Shown in pieces: positions 3,113 to 15,303 of a DNA stretch of 64,000 bases. The translations under genes were made by a program, and so were the position numbers. Numbering within the stretch: position 1 is the first letter of the stretch; every line of letters begins with the position of its first letter. The DNA lies in NCBI RefSeq assembly GCF_053078305.1, contig NZ_CP166879.1. The stretch is one strand, 5' to 3'. The notes below the pieces were generated by a model. That model was not told where the DNA came from. It made no database searches and worked only from the letters and a program-made list of their open reading frames with translations.

Positions 3113-4387
3113 ATGATACCTATGAAAAACTATCTTTTCCAGACACCCGAAGATATTTGTGTACAGTTAAAAAAAATGACACATCCTGTCACAATAAGAA
3201 CAACAGATATTGCTAATTTCTGGCACTATCTTGAGTCAGCAACACTTCCAGTGATCACAAAAAGCACCACTACAGAAAATCGGGAGGTTACATTTCTGTG
3301 GCGCTCAGAGAAAGCACTGCAAGGCGTATATCTTCGCCTGAATCGTGTAACAGATAAAAAAGACGTCAAAAAAGGACTAATGACTCATATCCCTTCGACA
3401 GATATCTGGATGCTGACACTGGTGTTACCAGCTTCATATCGGGGCTCATACTCATTTATAGAAATTCCCACAGATATGACACAAAAAGACATATTTCAAC
3501 TAGGAAGTCGCTTCTCTCCATTACCCGGTAAATCTGATCCATTTAACAAAACAGCAGAAATAAATATACGAGGATTCGGAGAATCAGTCCTTTCTCTTGA
3601 TATGGCTCCTGAACAAAAGGAATGGGATGATACTTCCCATAAATGTACAGGTATTCTTTCAACATTACATTCCTTTGTTGCAGGATATCAACGCCGGATT
3701 CGTTTATATTTTCCCCTGAATCCAACATCAGTACCTCTTGGATTACTTGTGTTACCTGATGCTGAAACATGGTTTGACCGGATAGATATTACCCGGGCAT
3801 TAGATATGGCCATCACCACTGGTCGTATCACGCCAATGGCAATTATGGGGATAGACAATATTAATGAATCTGATCGTATGAATATACTGGGAGGCAATAA
3901 AGAACTCATCTTTGATATAGCGGAAAATCTGATACCCCAGTTATACAGAGACTATCCGGATATCGTATGGGCTGGTCGCTCTAATACTGTACTGGCCGGG
4001 CAGAGCCTCGGTGGAGTGACAGCACTGATGGCAGCTATATATGCGTCGACAACATTTGGTACAATCATTAGTCACTCACCTTCAATGTGGTGGAACCCTG
4101 ACCAGGGCAGCCCGATCTTGTTTACTGAGAATAATACCTCCTGGGTAAGTGAGCAGATACTTTCAGCGCCTCCGAAAGATGTAAATATTCGACTTGGAGT
4201 CGGTTCTTTAGAAGGTACAACCGTCTCACATGTTCAGCGATTGCATCATTCGTTAATCGCAGCTGGTTTGGAAAGTAACCTCACTGTCTATACCGGTGGT
4301 CACGATTATGCTTGGTGGCGCGGAGCAATTATTGATGAATTAGCAAATTATAATTGCAGGAAGGTATCAAATAATAACTCTGTGTAA
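3113..4387 (+). CDS. mchS1: Enterobactin/salmochelin esterase (Fes/IroD-like), MchS1-type
   Basis: 424 aa with GQSLGG serine-hydrolase motif; sits between microcin genes and the IroB-like glycosyltransferase. Confidence 0.75.
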   Translation: MIPMKNYLFQTPEDICVQLKKMTHPVTIRTTDIANFWHYLESATLPVITKSTTTENREVTFLWRSEKALQGVYLRLNRVTDKKDVKKGLMTHIPSTDIWMLTLVLPASYRGSYSFIEIPTDMTQKDIFQLGSRFSPLPGKSDPFNKTAEINIRGFGESVLSLDMAPEQKEWDDTSHKCTGILSTLHSFVAGYQRRIRLYFPLNPTSVPLGLLVLPDAETWFDRIDITRALDMAITTGRITPMAIMGIDNINESDRMNILGGNKELIFDIAENLIPQLYRDYPDIVWAGRSNTVLAGQSLGGVTALMAAIYASTTFGTIISHSPSMWWNPDQGSPILFTENNTSWVSEQILSAPPKDVNIRLGVGSLEGTTVSHVQRLHHSLIAAGLESNLTVYTGGHDYAWWRGAIIDELANYNCRKVSNNNSV

Positions 4388-4456
4388 AATATCTTTTTAT
4401 CGTCCGATAACTCTTTCTGCAATATTATTATGGGAGACTATCTCATTTATTTAGTG

Positions 4457-4485
4457 ATGTCCTTCATTTATGTGATGAAGGACAT
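4457..4485. terminator. Hairpin between convergent mchS1 and mchA
   Basis: Inverted repeat atgtccttcat / atgaaggacat with 7-nt loop. Confidence 0.45.
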
Positions 4486-4528
4486 TATATTACTCATAAC
4501 ATTTCTCGTTGAAAATTTCAGCAATACG

Positions 4529-5653
4529 CTACAATTGTTTCCCGTTGTTTTTTAATTTTCTCATCAAAACCTCTGCAATCTCTGCAGGACTGGGTTGTTC
4601 AGCCATTTCAGCGGCTACCTGATCTGAACAGAAGCGTAGTGAATCATCATAAAGCAGGCGATTTACCAAATCACTAGTCAGTCCATGCTTGTCCGGAATA
4701 ATCCCACACCCACGCTTCGCAACAATTTCTGCATTAACAGAGCGATCTGCACCTTCGCCAAACACAATCTGTGGTATTCCACTATACAGCGCTGTCAGGG
4801 TATTACCTGCGCCACCGTGATGAATAAATCCATCAGCTCCATTAAGGAATACACCCATAGGTATCCAGTCAACCAGACGTACATTTGATGGTAGTTTTCG
4901 TAAACCAGTACGAGCATTTATTGCAAGTTGCAAAATGATATCAGCATCAACTTCATTTGCAGAATCCATAACCCATGAAATCAGCTCCAGACCATCAACC
5001 ATTGGTTTTACAGTGCCAAGGCTGATAAGTAAACGTTTCCGATCAGAATCCCTGTCCCACCATGTTTCCTTTACAGCACCTCCGTTATAAGGAATATATC
5101 TCATTGAGATAACCGGTTCTCCAGCATTTTTAAGAATGCTCATACTTGGGGGAGCAACATCAATCCATGCTAAATCACATAGTGGACCGCTGACTCCATG
5201 CCGCCTGTAAGCATTGCTTAAAGAACGGTTTAACATCTGAATATGGGCAGATGTATGCGCGAATCCAACAGCCAGCATCACTGAAGGAATTCTATATTTA
5301 GCAGCAACCAATGGGCCTGCCGGACCAAGAGGGGGATAGACTATTAAATCTGGCCTCCATTTTCCTGCAAAATTGATGAGGTTATCTGCCATTTCATCGC
5401 TAAAAAAAGAGAAATGACCAATAATATTACTTTTTTTCCTCAACTCTTCCTGATGGCGATATCCAGCCTCTGAATCTAAACCTGGAACTGCATCAAAAAC
5501 AACCAGTCCAGCTTCTGCTGCTTTATTCGCGAATTTGCCAGCGCTACTAATTACTACATCATGTCCAATTACACGAAAGGCCTGAGCCAGAGAAATCAAT
5601 GGGTATAACAAACCGTACAGCGGTGGGCCAATAAAAAGAATACGTTTTCGCAT
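4529..5653 (-). CDS. mchA: IroB-like glycosyltransferase (enterobactin C-glucosyltransferase), MchA
   Basis: 374 aa with GT1 glycosyltransferase-like features (N-terminal MRKRILFIGPP..., C-terminal HHGGAGNT motif). Confidence 0.8.
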   Translation of the reverse strand: MRKRILFIGPPLYGLLYPLISLAQAFRVIGHDVVISSAGKFANKAAEAGLVVFDAVPGLDSEAGYRHQEELRKKSNIIGHFSFFSDEMADNLINFAGKWRPDLIVYPPLGPAGPLVAAKYRIPSVMLAVGFAHTSAHIQMLNRSLSNAYRRHGVSGPLCDLAWIDVAPPSMSILKNAGEPVISMRYIPYNGGAVKETWWDRDSDRKRLLISLGTVKPMVDGLELISWVMDSANEVDADIILQLAINARTGLRKLPSNVRLVDWIPMGVFLNGADGFIHHGGAGNTLTALYSGIPQIVFGEGADRSVNAEIVAKRGCGIIPDKHGLTSDLVNRLLYDDSLRFCSDQVAAEMAEQPSPAEIAEVLMRKLKNNGKQL

Positions 5654-6367
5654 TAAAAAAGTCCGTCTTCTGCTTACCTGTTTATTTTTCTATCTCTAAG
5701 AAAACATAATTAATATTATTTTTATGTGAGCTTATGCACAAAAATAACCAAGTATATTATCTTCTGGTAGAGATACAGGATACAGTTTGTAGGAGCTTTC
5801 TTTTTTGAACAATGATTTGCAGGACAGTTATGCTAAACTAGCGGAATCAGTATCACAACAATAAATGACTGTTCATACCTGAAATTTGAATTAACAGGCA
5901 TCATGAATGTCAATAGTCTAAGCGGTGACTACTTATATCGCTTGCATAAATACTAAACACTGACTAGAAAAGTATTGGATAACCCCGTCACTAAAAGTAA
6001 CGCTTCGGTTATTTGCTCGGAATGTATTAACGCCAAGATTGTTAGCCGTTACGCCTTATATCACTGGCGCTGACAAATGTTTCTTTTCTAATTTACTGAA
6101 CCGGCGCAGACACGCAGGAAAGCACGCCGGCACCGGTGTAATGCCAGTTCTAATCAATAAGAATGGAATGACGAATCAGTCAGGAAGGGATAACAACCCG
6201 CTGCTGAACGGAAGGTATCAGCAGGAAGATGAACGGGAATATCGCCAGCACCAAGGGCAGGGCCGGGTTCCACAATACCAGCGCTGGCATTTTGCACATT
6301 GCCAGCGTACCGGCATTACAACACGTTTCATGCTGCTGCCCCCAGGATTCCTCGATTCGTTGCTACA

Positions 6368-6405
6368 TCCACTGCTCTACTTCACTTCCACTGCTCCACT
6401 TCACT
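6368..6405. repeat. Tandem 19-bp direct repeat (1 mismatch) spanning the alpA copy-1 stop codon
   Basis: tccactgctctacttcact / tccactgctccacttcact read directly. Confidence 0.75.
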
Positions 6406-6579
6406 TTTGTACCAGCGGCTGCTGCGCCCCAGTTTGATGGGTTTAGGGAAATGGCCTTCACTGATCAACTTGTAAAACCATTTGTCGGTCATACCGGTGA
6501 AACTGGTGATATAGTTCATGTCGATCAGGGAATTATCGGCACGCAGAAATACGCTGTCGTGGCTTGTTGTAGTCAACAT
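6382..6579 (-). CDS. alpA: AlpA-family (phage Vis/AlpA) transcriptional regulator, copy 1
   Basis: 65 aa; ...MTDKWFYKLISEGHFPKPIKLGRSSRWYKSEVEQWK matches the AlpA family signature. Confidence 0.8.
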   Translation of the reverse strand: MLTTTSHDSVFLRADNSLIDMNYITSFTGMTDKWFYKLISEGHFPKPIKLGRSSRWYKSEVEQWK

Positions 6580-6644
6580 GGTCAGAATGTCCTGTGAGAT
6601 TTATGAAGATTGTGCGAATGCGGGGAATCTGCTGAGCTGTGCTT

Positions 6645-6860
6645 TCAGAACTGGCCTGTTACGGGATACCAGGGATTACCGGCGGGGTAACGGGCTTCCG
6701 GATCATACACACCACGATTATCGCGGACAAAATCACTGAACGCCCATATCACCTCTTTAAGTATGTCTTCGCAGTCCGGTAAATGACGATCCAGCGCCAC
6801 ATCCCGGGTGGTACAGCTTTGATGCGCCCGGTGACACAAAGCCCGGATTGTTCCAGACAT
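6645..6860 (-). CDS. Hypothetical 71-aa protein between the Gp2-family gene and alpA
   Basis: ATG-initiated ORF co-oriented with flanking genes; weak ribosome-binding site. Confidence 0.3.
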   Translation of the reverse strand: MSGTIRALCHRAHQSCTTRDVALDRHLPDCEDILKEVIWAFSDFVRDNRGVYDPEARYPAGNPWYPVTGQF

Positions 6861-6964
6861 CCTGAATCAAACGCCCCAGATTAGGGGCGTCGAAATATGC
6901 CTCTCTGACCATTATATTCCGGCGTACAGGTAGCAGGTCTGAAGTGACAATGCGTCACCTGACG

Positions 6965-7531
6965 TTAAAAGTCACTACACCCAAGATGACGTTCAATGGC
7001 ACCATAGGATTCAATGTAAGCCCGGGCCGTCTGTTCCAGTACACCAGGCTCAGCGTTGTATGTGTTAGCTGCATCAAATACCAACGACAACACTTCAGGA
7101 TACACAACCAGATGTGTAATGGAGTTATCTTCACTCAATACTTTTCCCCACGCCTGCTCAATCAGATTTCTTAGAACCACCACCTCACGACTCTTACACC
7201 AGACATCGTTATTAAGTAGCAGCACCATAAGATAAGGAGTGGTATCGTTAGCCACAGCTTCCCTACTCCAGAGATAATATAAAGGGGTGGGCTCAACAGA
7301 TTGATCTTTACGTCGCTTACACTGCAAATATTCAGAAATGAGTCTATGCAGTTCACCAGTAAAATCAGCCATCAGAGAGGGAATGGCCTTATTAATACCC
7401 TGCCCTGGTATTAATTTAAATTGTAATAATTTAATTTCAGGATGTGTGGCTGCAGCCCGATACAGAGTTGCAAGGACACACTTTTGCCAGAGGGCGTTAC
7501 AGGAAAGCTTAACATTTGATTCTGTATACAT
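6965..7531 (-). CDS. Inovirus Gp2-like / YfjJ-YagK family protein, copy 1
   Basis: 188 aa with the hydrophobic core motif (YLMVLLLNNDVW) seen in YfjJ/YagK family; AAGGTG Shine-Dalgarno. Confidence 0.7.
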   Translation of the reverse strand: MYTESNVKLSCNALWQKCVLATLYRAAATHPEIKLLQFKLIPGQGINKAIPSLMADFTGELHRLISEYLQCKRRKDQSVEPTPLYYLWSREAVANDTTPYLMVLLLNNDVWCKSREVVVLRNLIEQAWGKVLSEDNSITHLVVYPEVLSLVFDAANTYNAEPGVLEQTARAYIESYGAIERHLGCSDF

Positions 7532-7598
7532 AATAAATCACCTTACAGTTACAACAGGTCAAAAACCGCTGTAGCCAGAGTTACGCTGGCCTGATGCT

Positions 7599-7808
7599 TT
7601 AGCATCGGGCTTCGTCAAATAATCCAGAATCCAGACGTGCCAATAAGCGCTGATACTGCTCAGGGAAATCAGGAGCATTAATATCCTGGATGTCACGTCC
7701 ATTAGCAGGGAAATGAACAATGCAGCCCCCTGGATTAACTATGCAGAAATCATCCTGAGGCACTGATAAATACGGAGAGGACTCTCGCGTATGGTTGATT
7801 GACACCAC
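7599..7808 (-). pseudogene. Possible gene remnant (ORF lacking an ATG start)
   Basis: 69-codon frame starting with GTG, no in-frame ATG; protein-like C-terminus (DFPEQYQRLLARLDSGLFDEA). Confidence 0.25.
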
Positions 7809-8009
7809 AGTGCGAATTCGGCGGATGCGAGATCACGGTACGATTCCGCACCACACTACCAATCAATACCCCGGGTTTTATTCAGGTAAGCAGGACTGCG
7901 GATATCCGGTGTCGCGCCGTTGTGTCACGAACGGGGTGGGTGCGAAACACCGGATAAAATACAGGTTGGCAATACCTCTGAACGCCCTGCGCAGAGCGGG
8001 GATTTCGGA

Positions 8010-8816
8010 TTAAGTACTCGCACCTCCGCAGTCCTCAAACAAGTCTGGCTGGTAGCTGTAAACAGACTTCGTACATACCGCTCTGCAATAAATCCCCGTA
8101 CCACAGGCCTCACAGAACTTCTTCCCATGAAAAAACTGCTCACACATCACACAATGCCACTCCAGCACGACCGATAATGGCGATAAAAACATCGCCATAT
8201 CCTCAATGTAAGGGTGGGACTTTTCCGGATTCAGCACCACACAGTCCGCCTTCTGTTGCTCACTCAGGGCATGTAAATCATGCTCAAACCATGCCCCCTG
8301 AGCATCTGTCTGCAGAATCAACCGGCCATGGCAGGAAAGGCAGAAACAATGCCGGATATTTCTGCTGAGCGCAGAGTCGGCACTGATAATGTGTTCACCC
8401 GGCGTGATCCCCAGCCCCGTTTTTATACCGTTCATTCTGCTACCCCCCTCCTCACTGAAGCGTCCGGTCTGGCAGTGTGTGCAGTACCGCTCCCCATAAT
8501 AATCGTGGTGACATTGTCTGCAGTGCCAGCTGGCTTTACGCACCACGGGTAAGGCATCCGGGACGAATTGCTGCAGACGTTTAATCAACTGTATTTCTCT
8601 GCGTTCCGGCCTGACATAAGGACATTGCTGCGCGTGCTCCGTCAGCCCTTCGTCAGCGTGTTCAAACCAGGGCCGTTCAGTGTCGTATTGCGGGTGGTAT
8701 CTGAGTGCACTGCCGCAAAGGTGGCAGGTGTAGCGGTCGTAAGGCGCAGTCTGTGCGGTACGGGCCCCCGTCAGACGTCCGTTGCCATCAAGAGCGAGAA
8801 AGGATTTTGCGTACAT
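8010..8816 (-). CDS. Cys/His-rich protein with internally duplicated zinc-ribbon-like motifs
   Basis: 268 aa; two halves each carrying CxxC ... WFEH ... WHCxxC ... CxxC patterns; GAGGAA Shine-Dalgarno. Confidence 0.65.
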   Translation of the reverse strand: MYAKSFLALDGNGRLTGARTAQTAPYDRYTCHLCGSALRYHPQYDTERPWFEHADEGLTEHAQQCPYVRPERREIQLIKRLQQFVPDALPVVRKASWHCRQCHHDYYGERYCTHCQTGRFSEEGGSRMNGIKTGLGITPGEHIISADSALSRNIRHCFCLSCHGRLILQTDAQGAWFEHDLHALSEQQKADCVVLNPEKSHPYIEDMAMFLSPLSVVLEWHCVMCEQFFHGKKFCEACGTGIYCRAVCTKSVYSYQPDLFEDCGGAST

Positions 8817-9075
8817 AGTATATATTCCTCAGCCGCCAGACGACACGCAGGCAACAGCCGTCCAGGTACGGGCAGCGTGGTCAGGTGTGAATGGCGGTTC
8901 AGTTAAAATCTGGACTGGAGTTTGGGTAAAGCAGGCTGGTTGCTGTTACAGCACTGTGGTTGTCACACAATGGCCCACTGACGTAAAAAACAGTCAGTGG
9001 GCGAGTGGATACATCGTTGCCGCCAGACAACAACCCATACTTTTGGTTTGCCGGGTATTGGTGCGCCTGTCGTGT

Positions 9076-9645
9076 TCAACTCCGGCTACAGCCAAAATTG
9101 CGCTCACCGGTGCCGCGAGCTTTGGTATGCTCCTTCGCCAGATAGCCAGAACGTTCCAGCACCTGCTGAAAGCCGGTTTCATCATCGCGTTCCAGCCACA
9201 CCGCTGGCTTGTCAGGAAAATGTGCCAGCGTGTCATAACGTCCGGCATCCACTCCCAGGGCACTGCACCAGGCCTGTTTAATAATCCCGGCCAGTGACCC
9301 CGGAGCGCGGTAATCGCCGGCACGACACCAGGTATCCCGGTTGACCAGCAGCAGCAGGTGATAGTGTTTTTTGCCTTTAAGCTCCCCGAACTCCCGGGCC
9401 CAGGCGTAATGCAGGGTCGAGGAATGCACGCGTTTACCTTCCCGATGCTTACGTTTCTGGTAAGCGTCGATTCGGGCTTTCAGGGCATTGATGAAGCGGG
9501 ATATCACAGCCGCGTCCGTTGCTGCCGGTACATCCGGGAGACGCAGATCAACCCGCAATGCCGTCAGACGGGGATGAACATCCAGTGCGTGCCGCACCGT
9601 CTCACGAATACGTTGCTGCCAGAAGGGGTTGTATTTGTAGGTCAT
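9076..9645 (-). CDS. Inovirus Gp2-like / YfjJ-YagK family protein, copy 2
   Basis: 189 aa; KKHYHLLLLVNRDTW motif; GGAGA Shine-Dalgarno. Confidence 0.7.
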   Translation of the reverse strand: MTYKYNPFWQQRIRETVRHALDVHPRLTALRVDLRLPDVPAATDAAVISRFINALKARIDAYQKRKHREGKRVHSSTLHYAWAREFGELKGKKHYHLLLLVNRDTWCRAGDYRAPGSLAGIIKQAWCSALGVDAGRYDTLAHFPDKPAVWLERDDETGFQQVLERSGYLAKEHTKARGTGERNFGCSRS

Positions 9646-9849
9646 GGTTAAATCTCCGTATGGTTTCGTTCATACGGATTAACCACGCCGTAAAAAATGC
9701 GCAGAGTCCCTGAAGTGATCTCCAACCAGGCAATATCTCAGGCACTCTGAGATAACCCGAACGGTCGTCTCCGGACTGACGGTTGAATTTTCAGCGTTGT
9801 TTTTTTAATGTAAAAAACCGATTACGGATAAGGCTGTGAGGAGGGAGTT

Positions 9850-10050
9850 ATGGTGATACGCAAAAAGAAGTGCTGGGACTGTGGAAACGCGATTACTCAT
9901 AATACTGTGTGTTGCCCGTATTGTGGTTCTGTCGACCCCTTCGGCTATTACCGGAATACAGACCGTATCGTTACTATACTGCTGGCACTGATTATTGTGG
10001 TCCTGCTGACTACTGTCAGCGTCAGTGTGTATATACTGTGTAGCTGGTGA
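9850..10050 (+). CDS. Small zinc-ribbon membrane protein
   Basis: 66 aa; CWDCG ... CCPYCG followed by one hydrophobic helix; strong GAGGAGGG Shine-Dalgarno. Confidence 0.5.
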   Translation: MVIRKKKCWDCGNAITHNTVCCPYCGSVDPFGYYRNTDRIVTILLALIIVVLLTTVSVSVYILCSW

Positions 10051-10464
10051 GATAACGGTTCATGTATCCCCTGAGCTGACAGTGTACCGGGTATATTAAG
10101 CGTAACCGACAGGTTCTCCTTCATACCATATTAAATTTTTCCAGGTATTGCCGCTGCCTTATTTCGTCTCATACAGGAAAACTCGTCTGGGTTTCTGACA
10201 AATACGTGAAACTCACAGCCCCTCAATATCAACCACACGCTGTAAGCCGGTAATACCTGAAAATCAGCCCATTACCGCCCACGCCTCCGGCACCATTCCC
10301 TTTAGATTTCGAATTCTTTGTTGTCGCTATACCGCTTAACGTTCCCGGTATTATCCTGGTTCCCGACAACAGGAACATATTCAGCTTTTAATAACCTGAG
10401 AAGAGCCAATAAGAATCACAAAGCGGATAACACCTGGCGCGATGCAGTTGTGATTACCGAACGC

Positions 10465-10662
10465 TCAGATGACATATTTCCAGACTGAAGCGGGAACACG
10501 ATCGTAAAGCTTGTTCATTGTCAGTTCTGCCAGCCAGTGATCAACCACAGAGTTGAAGGCTTCCAGTTCCGCAGAGGTAAGTTTATAACGCGTGTGGGAA
10601 ATCACTTTTTCCAGCGTCTCCCGGGATGAACAACGACGGAACTGCTTTGGTTTTAACTTCCA
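10465..10662 (-). pseudogene. Gene remnant (frame-disrupted small ORF)
   Basis: Protein-like 65-codon frame (...ETLEKVISHTRYKLTSAELEAFNSVVDHWLAELTMNKLYDRVPASVWKYVI) without a start codon; the nearby ATG is in another frame. Confidence 0.3.
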
Positions 10663-11372
10663 TTAGCCTCTCATCACTTTATGCTGCAATTAACGTGATA
10701 CTGTCAGCATACCGCCAGACTGGCATTCTGGTACCCACCCCAAACTCATTACTCCCGAGCCACCACTTAACCGGTCTCTCAGACTGTCACTCACCAGGTC
10801 GGATATGTTTACCGCTCAGACGGATGCTTAATGCACTCTGTTCACGTACATTGCAGATACGTTTTATATACGCGGGTTATACGCCAGCTATCAGGGATAG
10901 CGCAGTCTGTTGCTACTGCGTTCTCATCATGCCCACTGATCACACTCACCGTGTTTATTTCACATATATGAACTCATGTATTTGATCTCATGTGTTTGAT
11001 CTCTCTTATATATTTATAATACCAATCAGACAGTCTTATCCCATCGGTGATACCTGTCACCTGCCCACCGGACACGGTCTGCCCCATCGTAACCGCCCCG
11101 TAAATAACTCTGCAATTATCAGAACGCCAGTTTTCCCCTCTTCCTCACGAAAATCATCCCTTCTTTATCGCGCGCGCGTGCGGAAGCATCGTTTCGTAAC
11201 AACCACCCGGCATACCGGTACGGCTCAGCCACCGTAACCTCCCCGTTTATCTCCTGGCGGTCACATTCCCGATTATTTTTTACGTTTCTCCCCGGTTGTT
11301 ATGCCGGTGAAGGTGGTGCGTTGTTTTCATGACCACACCGGCTGGTTTAACAACATCCGGAGGAACATTCTC

Positions 11373-11579
11373 ATGATCACCCCAGTTTCACTGATGGATG
11401 ACCAGATGGTCGACATGGCATTTATCACTCAACTGACCGGCCTGACCGATAAGTGGTTTTACAAACTCATCAAGGATGGTGACTTTCCTGCGCCCATCAA
11501 AATGGGCCGCAGCTCCCGATGGCTGAAAAGCGAAGTGGAAGCCTGGCTGCAGGCGCGTATTGCACAGTCCCGTCCGTAA
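11373..11579 (+). CDS. alpA: AlpA-family transcriptional regulator, copy 2
   Basis: 68 aa from MITPVSLMDDQ...; TDKWFYKLIKDGDFPAPIKMGRSSRWLKSEVEAW; GGAGG Shine-Dalgarno. Confidence 0.8.
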   Translation: MITPVSLMDDQMVDMAFITQLTGLTDKWFYKLIKDGDFPAPIKMGRSSRWLKSEVEAWLQARIAQSRP

Positions 11580-11659
11580 TTCTTAACCGTTCATCTGCAG
11601 CAGACGCAGTCTCCGGCCTGCCGGCGGCGTTCTGCTGCCTGTTATCCCCCGTGAGGAAT

Positions 11660-12268
11660 ATGAAAATGAAACCACAGTATCAGACCCGTTACGAGCTGCT
11701 CCACGAAAGCTACCAGAAATGGCTGACCGGCTTCACCCGGCACGCCGTATCCTGGGGCGTGTGTCATCCGAATATCTACTACTTCCATAATCTGACGCCC
11801 GGGTGGGTGTCATTCAATGGTGAAAAACCGGAGATTGCCATCGTACCCCAGAGTCTGCACCGGCTGATGTATGGTCCGGACAAACGGACCACGCCGCCCC
11901 TGGATGATGATCTGATAGTGAATTTATGCACCAGTGAACATCTGCTGGTTCATCATCCGATGCTGGAAGGCATTCTCCTGTCTGAATGTGAACGTCTGAG
12001 GCAGCGTTCGCTGGCAAATAAACTGATCAGCCTCTTCCGTCAGTTTGGTGGCACGGAGTTGCGCCTCAAACTGGTCTGGCTTTGCTGGCTTGATTTAATG
12101 ACCGGAAACTGCCTTGACGACTGGACGGAGAATCTGAAACGGAAATCAGAAAAAGAGCTGGAGGAATGGATCATCAACCGTCAGAAGCAGAGCGCAGCAC
12201 TGACGGATCTGATGGATCAGTACGTGCTCCTGGCATACCGCACAACGGTTGACGATAAGCGCACCTGA
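11660..12268 (+). CDS. Hypothetical protein (about 203 aa) immediately downstream of alpA copy 2
   Basis: ORF with GAGGAA Shine-Dalgarno, start at ATG 11660 or 11666; no recognisable family. Confidence 0.6.
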   Translation: MKMKPQYQTRYELLHESYQKWLTGFTRHAVSWGVCHPNIYYFHNLTPGWVSFNGEKPEIAIVPQSLHRLMYGPDKRTTPPLDDDLIVNLCTSEHLLVHHPMLEGILLSECERLRQRSLANKLISLFRQFGGTELRLKLVWLCWLDLMTGNCLDDWTENLKRKSEKELEEWIINRQKQSAALTDLMDQYVLLAYRTTVDDKRT

Positions 12269-12491
12269 TGCCAGTTGTTTCAGGGAAGCTGGTATCCGGG
12301 CAGGGTGCCAGGGCTGACTGAACGGCCTGTCTGCCTGCCGTTTCGCTCTCCGTGCGTTCTGTCACACGCTGCACCTGAACGCCGGACTGCGGGCACGCAG
12401 ACAGGAAAGACGCAGGCTGGAACTTCTGACCGGCGGGTATCAGTTATATGCCTGTTGATTCATCACCACCACGCAGTTCCTGAGCTTTAGT

Positions 12492-12529
12492 TCATCACCG
12501 ATATTCATACATCTGAATATCGGTGATGA
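12492..12529. terminator. Perfect 16-bp inverted repeat (6-nt loop) between convergent genes
   Basis: tcatcaccgatattca tacatc tgaatatcggtgatga read directly. Confidence 0.6.
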
Positions 12530-12589
12530 AATCCCCATAATAATCAATCATCTAAGTCTGAAGCATAATAGAGAAAAACTGCTCACCGG

Positions 12590-14074
12590 TTACTTCGCTC
12601 TCAGCTTATTGTAGTGATAACCCGAGGTAAAAATACCAGAGACATCAGACAACTTTAAACTGGCTATCTGGGGAAGCAGAACATACATGGTTTTTCCTTC
12701 CGGCACGACAGAAAGCCTGAACTGAGATTCAAGAATGTTCAGCAATGCGTTCAGTTTTTTCCTGTTTCTGAACCGGCCCGGGCCACACTGGAGAATATAA
12801 TTTTTCCTGACACGGGGCGGGCATTCTCCGCGGCACTCCTCAATGAGCCAGTCGAACAGCTCCTCGGCGTCCTTCTGCTGCAGTTCAGATTCATTAGGTA
12901 ACGCAAATAATTTTTTATATTCATCTGTGTACCACGAACTTATTACGACAGCAGACGTCATGATATCGGCAGAGATTTTCCCTTCACCATAGCTGAAATA
13001 CTGAAATAACGCTGCAATTCTTGCAATGTTTTCTGTTTTTTTTGAAACATGTCCCCGAAACGGGCTTAAGGGTCCGGAAGGGGATAAATCCTGCTCCAGA
13101 ACATTATAGTGCTCAATAAATATTTTTTGCGCTTCAGGCGAAAAATGCAGACAATACCGTTCATCCTCACTGGATTTTTCAATACTGCCTCTGGCCAGTT
13201 CCATTAATCGTTCATGAAATGCCGTTAATGATCCTCCCGGAATCACAGCTCCATTAATAAAGCGTTTCCCCTGCGTGGTTGCAGGTTTACTGATAAGACA
13301 ACGGGCAAGAAAACCACTGTCCCTGGCAACAGAACCTTTTCGCTCCATATATCGGTCAAAAAGACCGGGTTGCACCATGAGGGATAACGTCATTCTGGCA
13401 TTTTCAATCATCTGTTCGGGTTCATTCTTTCTGTCCACAGACAATACAGAGCCATCCCACATTTTGTTAATAAAAGGCAACTCAGACAGGGTATATCCAT
13501 CAAATATAATACCGGCTTCATCTGACATAATACCCACTGAACGCCATTTACCACAAAGCTGATTCTTAATTGCCGCAGTCGTGGCATCATTAAAAATGAA
13601 TTTATACCTCACAGGTTCTTCCGCACTGTTTTTCTGAAGTACTTCCAGTTGTCTGAGGGTTTCTGACTCATCCGCGCCTTTGCGGAGTTCTTTATTCAGT
13701 TTTGACAACAATGCTTTTTTCTGAGCCTTTAAAAGCTCTTCCTTGTTTTTCCAGACAGCCAGTTCACTTTTGTATCTGGAATATAACTGCATCTCCTGCT
13801 GGTACAGGGGCTTCATTAATAATTTGTCCACTGCGGTTTTTCGTTCTCCGGACTCGGCAAGCGTCAGGAAAAAAAGAGAGACCGGCCCCCGCAGTGTATT
13901 CAGTCTGCAGACATCAATCAGATTCTGGCAGACAAGTGAAACAGCGCCCAGGGCAGACGCTGCCACAAGCCCAAGGGGAGCCTGCGTAATTTGCTGAGCT
14001 TCAATAACGGCATCACGAATGAGTGGAGGCAGCGAACTCAGGGGAAACTCATCACAAGGCTGACCGAATGACAT
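12590..14074 (-). CDS. YfjI-like protein (DUF3987-type, P4/CP4-like element protein)
   Basis: 494 aa from MSFGQPCDEF... (ATG 14074, GAGG Shine-Dalgarno); family assignment from recall of CP4-57 yfjI. Confidence 0.55.
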   Translation of the reverse strand: MSFGQPCDEFPLSSLPPLIRDAVIEAQQITQAPLGLVAASALGAVSLVCQNLIDVCRLNTLRGPVSLFFLTLAESGERKTAVDKLLMKPLYQQEMQLYSRYKSELAVWKNKEELLKAQKKALLSKLNKELRKGADESETLRQLEVLQKNSAEEPVRYKFIFNDATTAAIKNQLCGKWRSVGIMSDEAGIIFDGYTLSELPFINKMWDGSVLSVDRKNEPEQMIENARMTLSLMVQPGLFDRYMERKGSVARDSGFLARCLISKPATTQGKRFINGAVIPGGSLTAFHERLMELARGSIEKSSEDERYCLHFSPEAQKIFIEHYNVLEQDLSPSGPLSPFRGHVSKKTENIARIAALFQYFSYGEGKISADIMTSAVVISSWYTDEYKKLFALPNESELQQKDAEELFDWLIEECRGECPPRVRKNYILQCGPGRFRNRKKLNALLNILESQFRLSVVPEGKTMYVLLPQIASLKLSDVSGIFTSGYHYNKLRAK

Positions 14075-15303
14075 AGTAACCTCACTACACACAGATATAA
14101 AAGTACTGCAATTCTGGCTATTAATAGCAAAAATAGCAGTCAAATCAATATGAGGTAAAAATTTTTGTTGCTTTAATGGTTAAATAATAACCACAGTGTG
14201 TTTTGCTGCTGAAGAAAGACAAAATGAATCTGTGTGTCCCCTCCTTCCCTTCAGAGCACATCCACTATTCAAATTTTACACAACCACGTACGAACAAAAA
14301 GCATCATCCCGGGTATTGCAGATACCGGTTTCCTGCCGGGAAGAATCATAAACAGAACACCGGGAATAACGCCTTCAGGAATCCCCCCCTCCTGAAGAAG
14401 AATAAAATAAAGAAGACTACAGTTCCTGCACTGAATGCTGAGTACAATATTCTATGGACAGGATGACATATTTATAAATAACAAAAACCATTTAATACTG
14501 ATACATCAATAAAATACTTCCTCCCTGCTGACGCAGATAAAATGCACCATTTTTTCTTCAAATACTTCTGTATAATCGCCAGCCAATGATGAGAATGGAT
14601 TAAAATAACACTTCTTCGACAAACACAAAAACAGCCTTCATTTTACATCATCATCCAGTTTCAGTTAACCCCGGACGAGCGACAGCGTTTCAGTACAGGA
14701 ATTAAAAGCCAGCTTTTGCTCAGTAAAAACACACTCAACTAATAATATCTCAGCAGATATTATCCTGACCAGGACACCTCACATTACTGAATTCTCTTCC
14801 GACAGTATCACTGCACAAATAAAAAAGAACTGGATAAATATTCAGACCGGAAGAATGGTGTCACAAAAGCATTTAATCATTACGCATGACCAGGAAGGGA
14901 AACACTTAACCACATGGTATCAACAGATATCATTACGTGTGCACTCTTATAAAAAACACACAGAAGAAGTAAGATAATTATAAACGTAAATTTAATATCT
15001 CCCACTGACATCTCCCCCACAATACACTGAAAAATACTCACAGCAGTAAACACAGACACACCTGATAATCATGCAGCCGATAAATATTTTCCCCTTTACG
15101 GAGAAATCAGCCTGCTGTTTAACAATAACGGCGTATTTTCATGGAAGGAGATCACCCAGTAACGGATAAGTCCTGATCTCCTTCATGTTAATACGCAACA
15201 ATCCCATCGATTCAAAACAATTTCAGACAGATATTATCTCCGTGAATCCCCCGCCACCTTTCCGGTGCGCGGGGTTTTGTCTTTTTTCACCGGGAATACA
15301 TGT

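Follow-up and report, generated by a model that had tools for sequence, protein, structure and literature searches.

A Gp2-family HUH endonuclease-like gene, AlpA and zinc-ribbon genes as a conserved backbone group beside the cargo slot of Escherichia coli genomic islands

Introduction

What is the array of small, co-oriented genes on the minus strand of an Escherichia coli chromosome at positions 6382-9645 of the window (the whole 64,000-nucleotide stretch analysed here, taken from contig NZ_CP166879.1 of RefSeq assembly GCF_053078305.1), and is it cargo or backbone of the island in which it lies? The array contains two genes of the YagK/YfjJ family, also called Gp2-like and termed here Gp2 copy 1 and Gp2 copy 2, an open reading frame (ORF) of 268 amino acids (aa) that is rich in Cys and His, a 71-aa ORF and an alpA gene (Table 1). 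The original prediction, made from the sequence alone, described two Gp2 paralogues flanking an internally duplicated protein and proposed an uncharacterised accessory or anti-phage module in a variable slot of a P4/CP4-like element. All the ORF coordinates and the strand that it gave were confirmed, and so was the uncharacterised status, as no characterised function is on record for these families. The literature on YfjJ, YagK, DUF3296, DUF7828, Zn_ribbon_11 and inovirus Gp2 contained annotation-level mentions only.

The answer differs from the original prediction in two respects. The whole region is island backbone and lies at a junction within a composite E. coli genomic island. Its right part (8010-9645) is intact and widely conserved; in this unit, Gp2 copy 2 is followed by two zinc-ribbon genes, named here ZnR-A and ZnR-B. 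The left part (6221-7808) is what remains of another backbone copy, comprising a truncated Gp2 gene, a Gp2 paralogue without the HUH (His-hydrophobic-His) motif, a pseudogene, alpA and a truncated ZnR gene. The two Gp2 paralogues do not, therefore, flank the central gene as one unit; an intact backbone segment abuts the remnants of another. Moreover, the group to which the intact segment belongs keeps its place in many islands while the adjacent DNA changes, and the proposal of variable-slot cargo did not hold.

Results

HUH endonuclease hallmarks in Gp2 copy 2

The assignment of both Gp2 copies to one family, as originally proposed, was upheld by Pfam. Copy 2 matched PF11726 (YagK_YfjJ_C) at 2.8e-45 and, in addition, REP_ORF2-G2P at 3.4e-5; the match of copy 1 was weaker (Table 1). 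The family alignment of copy 2 and its relatives is marked by two motifs, KKHYHxxLLLN and YLAK. Both histidines of HYH were kept in 104 of 106 homologues. The motif Y168-L-A-K171 was nearly invariant in the full-length homologues, and Y168 was present in all those that are not C-terminally frameshifted. In the AlphaFold2 model (predicted local distance difference test score, pLDDT, 89.2; predicted TM-score, pTM, 0.87), HYH was located on the strand formed by residues 92-102 and Y168 in the helix 167-170. The His-hydrophobic-His motif, the Tyr motif and an HUH/Rep nuclease fold, by which membership in the HUH superfamily is judged, were all found. Copy 2 thus bears the hallmarks of an HUH endonuclease-like, Rep-like protein, and nicking activity is predicted from its sequence and model.

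Copy 2 shares a His-hydrophobic-His motif on the central strand and a single YxxK-type Tyr on a helix with the HUH Reps, namely SIRV1 ORF119, parvovirus NS1, the Rep nuclease of adeno-associated virus, RepB of pMV158 and the CRESS-DNA Reps, at only 10-17% sequence identity. Like SIRV1 ORF119, it is a small, single-domain protein. It also stands apart from these Reps: it is chromosomal, in tyrosine-integrase islands, whereas the Reps are viral or plasmid-borne, and it is accompanied by dedicated zinc-ribbon proteins and AlpA. Viral Reps pair the HUH domain with an SF3 helicase; a helicase-like gene (DUF3987) often lies near Gp2, which is a further likeness. A PDB sequence search with the Gp2 family profile returned no relative. 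Scans of the seven products of the region against NCBIfam, PADLOC and PHROGs were uninformative beyond AlpA/excisionase matches and PHROGs of unknown function.

Among proteins of E. coli K-12, YagK (in CP4-6) and YfjJ (in CP4-57) belong to the same Pfam family, PF11726. They share 37-38% identity with copy 2, and both carry HYH and Y(L/M)TK.

The 268-aa ORF joins two paralogous zinc-ribbon genes

The 268-aa ORF had been taken for a single protein with an internal duplication. Its halves are indeed homologous (29% identity, E 6e-12), but the ORF is a frameshift fusion and not one duplicated gene: two adjacent paralogous genes, ZnR-A and ZnR-B, are joined by a one-base insertion that is specific to a lineage. 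In a DNA alignment with three related loci (L001, L002 and L003; loci used for comparison are given L numbers), the window had one additional base in the G run at 8443-8448, 8 nucleotides before the ATG of ZnR-B, which shifts ZnR-A into the ZnR-B frame. The stop codon of ZnR-A is lost here, with readthrough into ZnR-B; in the relatives, ZnR-A is a separate gene of 127 aa. The RefSeq annotation of L002, L003 and L017 shows two genes, of 127 and 141 aa, with an ATGA overlap. A genome that is 99.8% identical over positions 6000-10200 contains the same 807-bp sequence, in which RefSeq calls ZnR-A a pseudogene “missing C-terminus” and ZnR-B an intact 141-aa gene.

The fused form is rare. Among 5,426 complete E. 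coli genomes, only three records matched the 807-bp ORF at 99% identity or more, and nearly all the other full-length matches were 806 bp long. In public assemblies, the exact 268-aa sequence was found in 114 contigs, compared with 651 contigs for the separate 127-aa protein and at least 1000 for the 141-aa protein. Since the fusion leaves both halves in frame with every conserved Cys/His column retained, and since ZnR-B keeps its own Shine-Dalgarno sequence and ATG, it is likely tolerated rather than destructive.

Each half consists of DUF7828 followed by Zn_ribbon_11, with Pfam matches of 4e-30 and 2.3e-8 in the first half and of 1.3e-21 and 2.1e-14 in the second. Both domains were present, in this order, in all 34 aligned ZnR members. 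Two zinc sites are predicted per unit, a C2HC site formed by C32, C35, H52 and C65 and a C4 site formed by C95, C98, C108 and C111. The ligand columns were invariant or nearly so in the family alignment and occur in both halves, and the repeated Cys/His motifs pointed out in the original prediction coincide with them. ZnR-A-like and ZnR-B-like proteins form old, distinct subfamilies. For ZnR-A, the ratio of nonsynonymous to synonymous substitution rates (dN/dS) was 0.13.

The ZnR family is small, with 94 representatives among 1.84 billion clustered proteins, and its matches in the AlphaFold database (AFDB) were family members only, all from Enterobacterales. Two long proteins among the matches, P0225 (1827 aa) and P0248 (648 aa), were judged from their sequences to be unrelated repeat proteins and were treated as non-members. 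RPB9 was also considered as a homologue and rejected, as its PDB profile match was borderline (E 0.017) and driven by spaced Cys pairs. A resemblance to the CoiA_N zinc finger (PF25164), which has a CxxC ... (W/H)F.H ... C pattern like that of ZnR, is a lead only: sub-threshold matches occurred in 8 of the 34 members (E ≤ 0.1), the best at 1.3e-3 and none reaching E 0.001. One ZnR family member in AFDB is named “Competence protein”. The ZnR proteins differ from CoiA in that they have no nuclease domain and carry an added C4 ribbon.

We must also note a 279-aa E. coli protein (P0057), 87% identical to copy 2, in which PF11726, DUF7828 and Zn_ribbon_11 are found in one chain. A deletion or frameshift in one assembly has probably joined Gp2 to ZnR-A, and the protein was not taken as evidence of an interaction between the two.

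Gp2, AlpA and ZnR form a conserved backbone group

The neighbourhoods of ZnR genes were taken from exact-protein look-ups; a reduced ZnR alignment against GTDB genomes gave three loci. The distant loci, with proteins of 24-34% identity, came from metagenome or other public assemblies and were judged only where enough flanking DNA was available. In all eight of these, an AlpA gene and a PF11726 gene were co-oriented with ZnR within ~3 kb, in the order Gp2-AlpA-ZnR or AlpA-Gp2-ZnR. Two Pectobacterium loci have alpA directly upstream of ZnR. Overall, the distant relatives span Serratia, Pectobacterium and metagenomes. A Gp2 gene was directly upstream of the ZnR genes in each of the six E. coli loci examined, five of which contain the ZnR-A/ZnR-B pair; in L018, two ZnR genes are split by an IS110 insertion. 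Some loci (L005, L014, L022 and L025) have ZnR genes in tandem or more than one ZnR copy. The linkage of ZnR with Gp2 in other genomes, which the original prediction had put forward as its own check, was therefore seen in 8/8 distant and 6/6 E. coli loci. ZnR DNA was found in 3820 of the 5426 complete E. coli genomes (70%), almost always on the chromosome, at a median of two and up to seven places per genome.

The DNA beyond ZnR varies from locus to locus. In L017 (1-3736, E. coli strain 300490), a distance of 265 bp separates the ZnR pair from the end of the BREX genes pglZ and brxL, which shows that the position just beyond ZnR-B is an insertion slot for cargo and defence genes; L018 and L019 have insertion sequences there. 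In the distant loci, ZnR is followed by an ars operon or by SMC-like, Mrr/SNF2-like or SMEK/CTD10-type genes, and then by a P4-type integrase. Throughout Enterobacterales, AlpA and at least one ZnR gene are grouped, in one orientation, with a Gp2-family gene that is HUH-intact in most loci, and this conserved group adjoins the variable cargo slot of integrase-bearing islands. As its position is fixed in many islands while the neighbouring DNA varies, the group is backbone, not cargo.

In the K-12 island CP4-57, yfjI lies between alpA and yfjJ, and the neighbours are the defence genes abpAB and rnlAB. A six-frame scan of the three K-12 islands CP4-6, CP4-57 and CP4-44 (L004, L015, L028 and L029) with the ZnR hidden Markov model (HMM) gave no ZnR up to E 0.1. 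This absence may explain why the family has neither a y-gene name nor a literature.

A similar core has been described in another genus. As reported in the part of 10.1101/2024.08.29.610337 on which we draw, the Pseudomonas islands I23, I44 and I55, located at a transfer-messenger RNA (tmRNA) site and transduced by a jumbo phage, have a proposed core of RadC, an inovirus Gp2-like protein, AlpA and a tyrosine integrase (intY), and the DNA between these core genes is variable cargo rich in defence genes; that part of the source does not mention a zinc-ribbon (DUF7828/Zn_ribbon_11) partner. The island in the window resembles them in having a JAB/RadC-like gene, DUF932, an antirestriction gene and CbtA/CbeA. 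It differs in genus and integration site, and the Gp2 proteins of the two are alike in their description.

The left part is the remains of a second backbone copy

Copy 1 is a divergent paralogue of copy 2 (27% identity, E 1e-18) in which TPYLMVLLL replaces HYH and the region of the Tyr motif is deleted or changed. With the HUH histidines and the Tyr motif gone, it is predicted to be catalytically inactive. Its close relatives were almost confined to E. coli, and its dN/dS was 0.23-0.26, at low divergence. A second Gp2 paralogue lacking both HUH and Tyr (266 aa) is located directly downstream of ZnR in a distant metagenomic locus (L023, 5559-6359), which suggests that inactive Gp2 paralogues recur, with an independent case in L023, and are not a one-off product of decay.

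Upstream of copy 1 lies a third Gp2-family gene, reduced to a remnant. The original prediction had read 7599-7808 as the C-terminal end of a lost gene; this proved right, and the gene continues in the frame 7559-7720. The two translations, “IVHFPANG...QRLLARLD” and LDYLTKPDAKASGQRNSGYSGF, align to the C-terminal part of the Gp2 family, the latter (7559-7720) to its YL(A/T)K...RNFGCS end. RefSeq names the remnant “YagK/YfjJ domain-containing protein”, and the equivalent ORF in L002 and L003 gave an HMM match. The 71-aa ORF is present as predicted, but it is a fragment of a frameshifted, N-terminally truncated pseudogene, annotated as “frameshifted; incomplete; missing N-terminus” in three relatives. 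The joined translation of this pseudogene had no PHROG match.

The AlpA-family assignment of alpA copy 1, made in the original prediction, was upheld by PF05930 (6.9e-10, residues 22-64) and by the PHROG family “excisionase and transcriptional regulator” (2.1e-8). A 19-bp tandem duplication (D2, 6365-6402; copies 89% identical) at the 3′ end of the gene contains the stop codon and shortens the C-terminus, giving 65 aa compared with the 92-aa ORF of alpA copy 2; in L002 and L003, the annotation gives the orthologue as frameshifted. Just downstream of alpA copy 1, the ZnR family HMM picked up a remnant with the translation RWQCAKCQRWYCGTRPCPWC. With this remnant ends a second AlpA-then-ZnR unit, truncated by the microcin/glycosyltransferase DNA, which is the cargo that cuts short the second backbone copy.

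Just left of the array, two ORFs at 3113-5653 encode an alpha/beta-hydrolase of 424 aa and a glycosyltransferase-like protein of 374 aa; in the 99.8%-identical genome, their annotated neighbours are the microcin H47 genes mchB, mchI and mchF.

Setting of the array

The DNA of the window is from E. coli and, over positions 6000-10200, has 99.8% identity with the strain 04-00955 chromosome. The island is composite, with a microcin H47/glycosyltransferase cluster on one side of the array and a CP4-like backbone on the other. The backbone genes in the window are AlpA, YfjI, a GTPase, Ag43, DUF932, an antirestriction gene, a JAB/RadC-like gene and CbeA/CbtA, followed by kps and gsp. No tRNA genes were found in the window, and no Rfam matches in 5000-15000.

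Shine-Dalgarno-like sequences, read from the DNA, precede copy 2 (GGAG), the 268-aa ORF (GAGGA), the ATG at 8435 (GAGGAGG), copy 1 (AAGGTG) and alpA copy 1 (AGGA). Of the ribosome-binding sites claimed for the array, those of copy 2, the 268-aa ORF, copy 1 and alpA have such a sequence; the 71-aa ORF has no spaced Shine-Dalgarno sequence. Promoter and terminator scans gave counts at chance level, and in consequence the array is not established as an operon. The G+C content along the array was 0.58 in copy 2, 0.57 in ZnR-A, 0.51 in ZnR-B and 0.43 in copy 1. Purifying selection was evident in copy 2, ZnR-A, ZnR-B and copy 1, with dN/dS values of 0.12-0.35.

Table 1 Coordinates of the array and of neighbouring features, as positions in the window
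Feature	Position	Strand	Description
Zinc-ribbon remnant	6221-6376	-	just downstream of alpA copy 1; MKRVVMPVRWQCAKCQRWYCGTRPCPWC; ZnR family HMM 2e-5
alpA copy 1	6382-6579	-	65 aa; AlpA-family helix-turn-helix regulator/excisionase-like
Pseudogene fragment	6645-6917	-	71-aa ORF 6645-6860 and overlapping 51-aa frame 6757-6912
Gp2 copy 1	6965-7531	-	188 aa; divergent YagK/YfjJ paralogue; PF11726 8.3e-10
Third Gp2-family (YagK-like) remnant	7559-7808	-	5′-truncated, frameshifted; frames 7599-7808 and 7559-7720
268-aa ORF	8010-8816	-	268 aa; ZnR-A and ZnR-B joined
ZnR-B, downstream zinc-ribbon gene	8010-8435	-	intact, 141 aa; own ATG 8435-8433; GAGGAGG Shine-Dalgarno
ZnR-A, upstream zinc-ribbon gene	8436-8816	-	DUF7828 at residues 2-87 and Zn_ribbon_11 at residues 94-123 of the 268-aa ORF
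G6 run with +1 insertion	8443-8448	-	GGGGGG vs GGGAG in relatives
Gp2 copy 2	9076-9645	-	189 aa; YagK/YfjJ family; HUH motif H94-Y-H96 then LLLL; Tyr motif Y168-L-A-K171
66-aa ORF	9850-10050	+	divergent from Gp2 copy 2; CxxC...CxxC, then hydrophobic segment
Truncated Hha/YmoA-family gene	10465-10605	-	46 aa here, 49 aa annotated in near-identical genome
alpA copy 2	11301-11579	+	intact backbone; 92-aa ORF; PHROG excisionase/regulator matches
~200-aa conserved protein	11666-12268	+	after alpA copy 2, intact backbone
YfjI/DUF3987	12590-14143	-	intact backbone; DUF3987 at 1.8e-95; PHROG “DNA helicase” family match

Three neighbouring genes deserve a comment. The 66-aa ORF is kept at the same place in the relatives, where it is annotated as “hypothetical protein”, and gave weak matches to PHROGs of unknown function and to a rubrerythrin-like zinc motif. 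At the place of the truncated hha, the relatives have a full-length 70-aa hha gene. The ~200-aa protein after alpA copy 2 had no Pfam or PHROG match on record; clear relatives of it, judged by eye from stretches such as “HHPMLEGxLLSEC”, lie between AlpA and ZnR in the distant loci L022 (4458-4991 and 6537-7067) and L013 (5174-5779), and it may be a fourth component of the backbone.

Discussion

Proposed role in the excised island

We give an even chance to the reading that Gp2, ZnR and AlpA serve the nicking, replication or mobilisation of the excised island. The process would start when AlpA induces the island or drives its excision; in CP4-57, integrase expression and excision are activated by AlpA-family proteins, according to work cited in 10.1101/2024.08.29.610337. 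Gp2 copy 2 would then nick a specific island site by means of its His-hydrophobic-His metal site and Tyr168, and the nick would initiate rolling-circle replication or single-strand transfer of the excised circle. ZnR-A and ZnR-B, probably acting as an A/B pair, would be small nucleic-acid-binding accessory or specificity factors for nicking or for its regulation, and the nearby DUF3987 helicase-like YfjI may supply unwinding. A bolder form of the proposal, in which the HUH protein, ZnR-A/ZnR-B and AlpA make up an undescribed DNA-processing machine that would give CP4-like islands autonomous replication or single-strand mobilisation after excision, with the ZnR pair as its site-specificity or sensing subunit, is possible and, in our judgement, rather doubtful.

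Several observations weigh against such a role. Nicking, replication or transfer activity appears to be known for no member of the YagK/YfjJ family, and both YfjJ and YagK are listed as uncharacterised in K-12 (PMC11551758). The frequency of shared 9-mers around ten Gp2 genes did not exceed that in shuffled controls, so this search revealed no conserved nick site or origin near them. An inverted repeat is located between copy 2 and ZnR-A (8968-9007), with a 10-bp stem and a T-rich 10-nt loop, and it folds better as single-stranded DNA than its shuffles (z -2.7). Its loop TTTTTTACGT is kept in the relatives, but the stem is lost in L003, and the hairpin could be a nick-site hairpin or nothing. 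The ZnR model had no fold match among solved structures. Nucleic-acid binding by ZnR may be inferred only from the zinc-ribbon motifs and the sub-threshold resemblance to CoiA_N, because the isoelectric points, near neutral with a median of 7.6, are uninformative as a proxy for it. In several distant loci, the flanks read contain no DUF3987. Finally, Gp2 paralogues without HUH persist in the window and in L023, which hints at a non-catalytic, perhaps regulatory, role for some members of the family.

Alternative explanations

This last hint can be extended to the whole group, which would then be a regulatory module: ZnR and the HUH-less Gp2 proteins would act as DNA-binding regulators of excision together with AlpA, or of the adjacent cargo, and the HUH fold would serve for DNA binding only. 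The arrangement of the loci is compatible with this explanation, as ZnR lies directly downstream of AlpA, a member of an excisionase/activator family, in most distant loci, the module borders variable cargo, and Hha-family regulators adjoin it in E. coli. The retention of dead Gp2 paralogues (dN/dS ~0.25 in the window) and their independent origin in L023 point the same way. Nevertheless, hardly any member of the main family has lost the HUH histidines or the Tyr, which argues for retained catalysis, and the 9-mer search around the Gp2 genes found no operator sites; we regard a purely regulatory module, the main rival, as unlikely. The catalytic losses in copy 1 admit of another interpretation, in which the whole array is debris of recombination between islands and its ORFs are merely young. 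Debris does make up the left part, with its truncated and frameshifted Gp2, pseudogene, truncated ZnR and the duplication that ends alpA, and the stop codon of ZnR-A is lost as well. This explanation does not agree with the dN/dS values of copy 2, ZnR-A, ZnR-B and copy 1, with a gene order conserved across genera at 24-34% protein identity, or with a fusion that leaves both halves in frame with all their zinc ligands, and we consider it quite improbable for the array as a whole.

Much the same low probability attaches to the idea that the array is accessory cargo, anti-phage or otherwise, occupying a variable slot in a P4/CP4-like element, the explanation favoured in the original prediction. 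No function is known for the proteins, zinc-ribbon and nuclease domains occur in many defence systems, and known defence genes are adjacent, namely BREX in L017 and AbpAB and RnlAB beside yfjJ in K-12. However, PADLOC-DB 2.0 matched none of the seven proteins, save for a weak match of alpA (E 0.0087), the position relative to AlpA is fixed in many unrelated islands whose neighbours change, and genes carried by 70% of the complete E. coli genomes, often more than once per genome, do not behave like such cargo. The RefSeq product name “inovirus Gp2 family protein” and the match in Pfam to REP_ORF2-G2P, a family that takes its name from phage replication proteins, could be taken to mean that the locus is the remnant of an integrated filamentous phage (inovirus). 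This is very improbable: among 50,697 phage records, a tblastn search with copy 2 found one unannotated 4.5-kb E. coli record and no inovirus, and the same search with ZnR-B found nothing; no coat, assembly or Zot-like genes are annotated nearby, and the PHROG families matched are of unknown function. The name “inovirus Gp2” is misleading for copy 2.

Conclusions

The gene families described here are already in Pfam and RefSeq, and the locus is near-identical to annotated genomes. What was not found in the literature searched is an account of Gp2 as a predicted HUH nuclease that is conserved with AlpA and dedicated zinc-ribbon proteins at the edge of the cargo slot, and we file the locus as an HUH Rep-like module of integrative elements. 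For the window itself the practical lesson is smaller, in that a frameshift has fused two genes into the 268-aa ORF and debris makes up half of the array.

Few unstudied genes of E. coli are as frequent as the ZnR genes. The module would mark the edge of a cargo slot that takes BREX and other defence genes, which is useful for the annotation of islands and defence hotspots. If the HUH protein is an active nickase, islands thought to be immobile relics would own a replication or mobilisation function. Were the DNA-processing machine real, it would serve the commonest island family of E. coli (CP4-like, bearing Ag43/CbtA and present in most strains), and it would explain both the spread of “defective” cryptic prophages and the clustering of defence genes beside the module. 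The locus is thus a reasonable lead for how CP4-like islands move.

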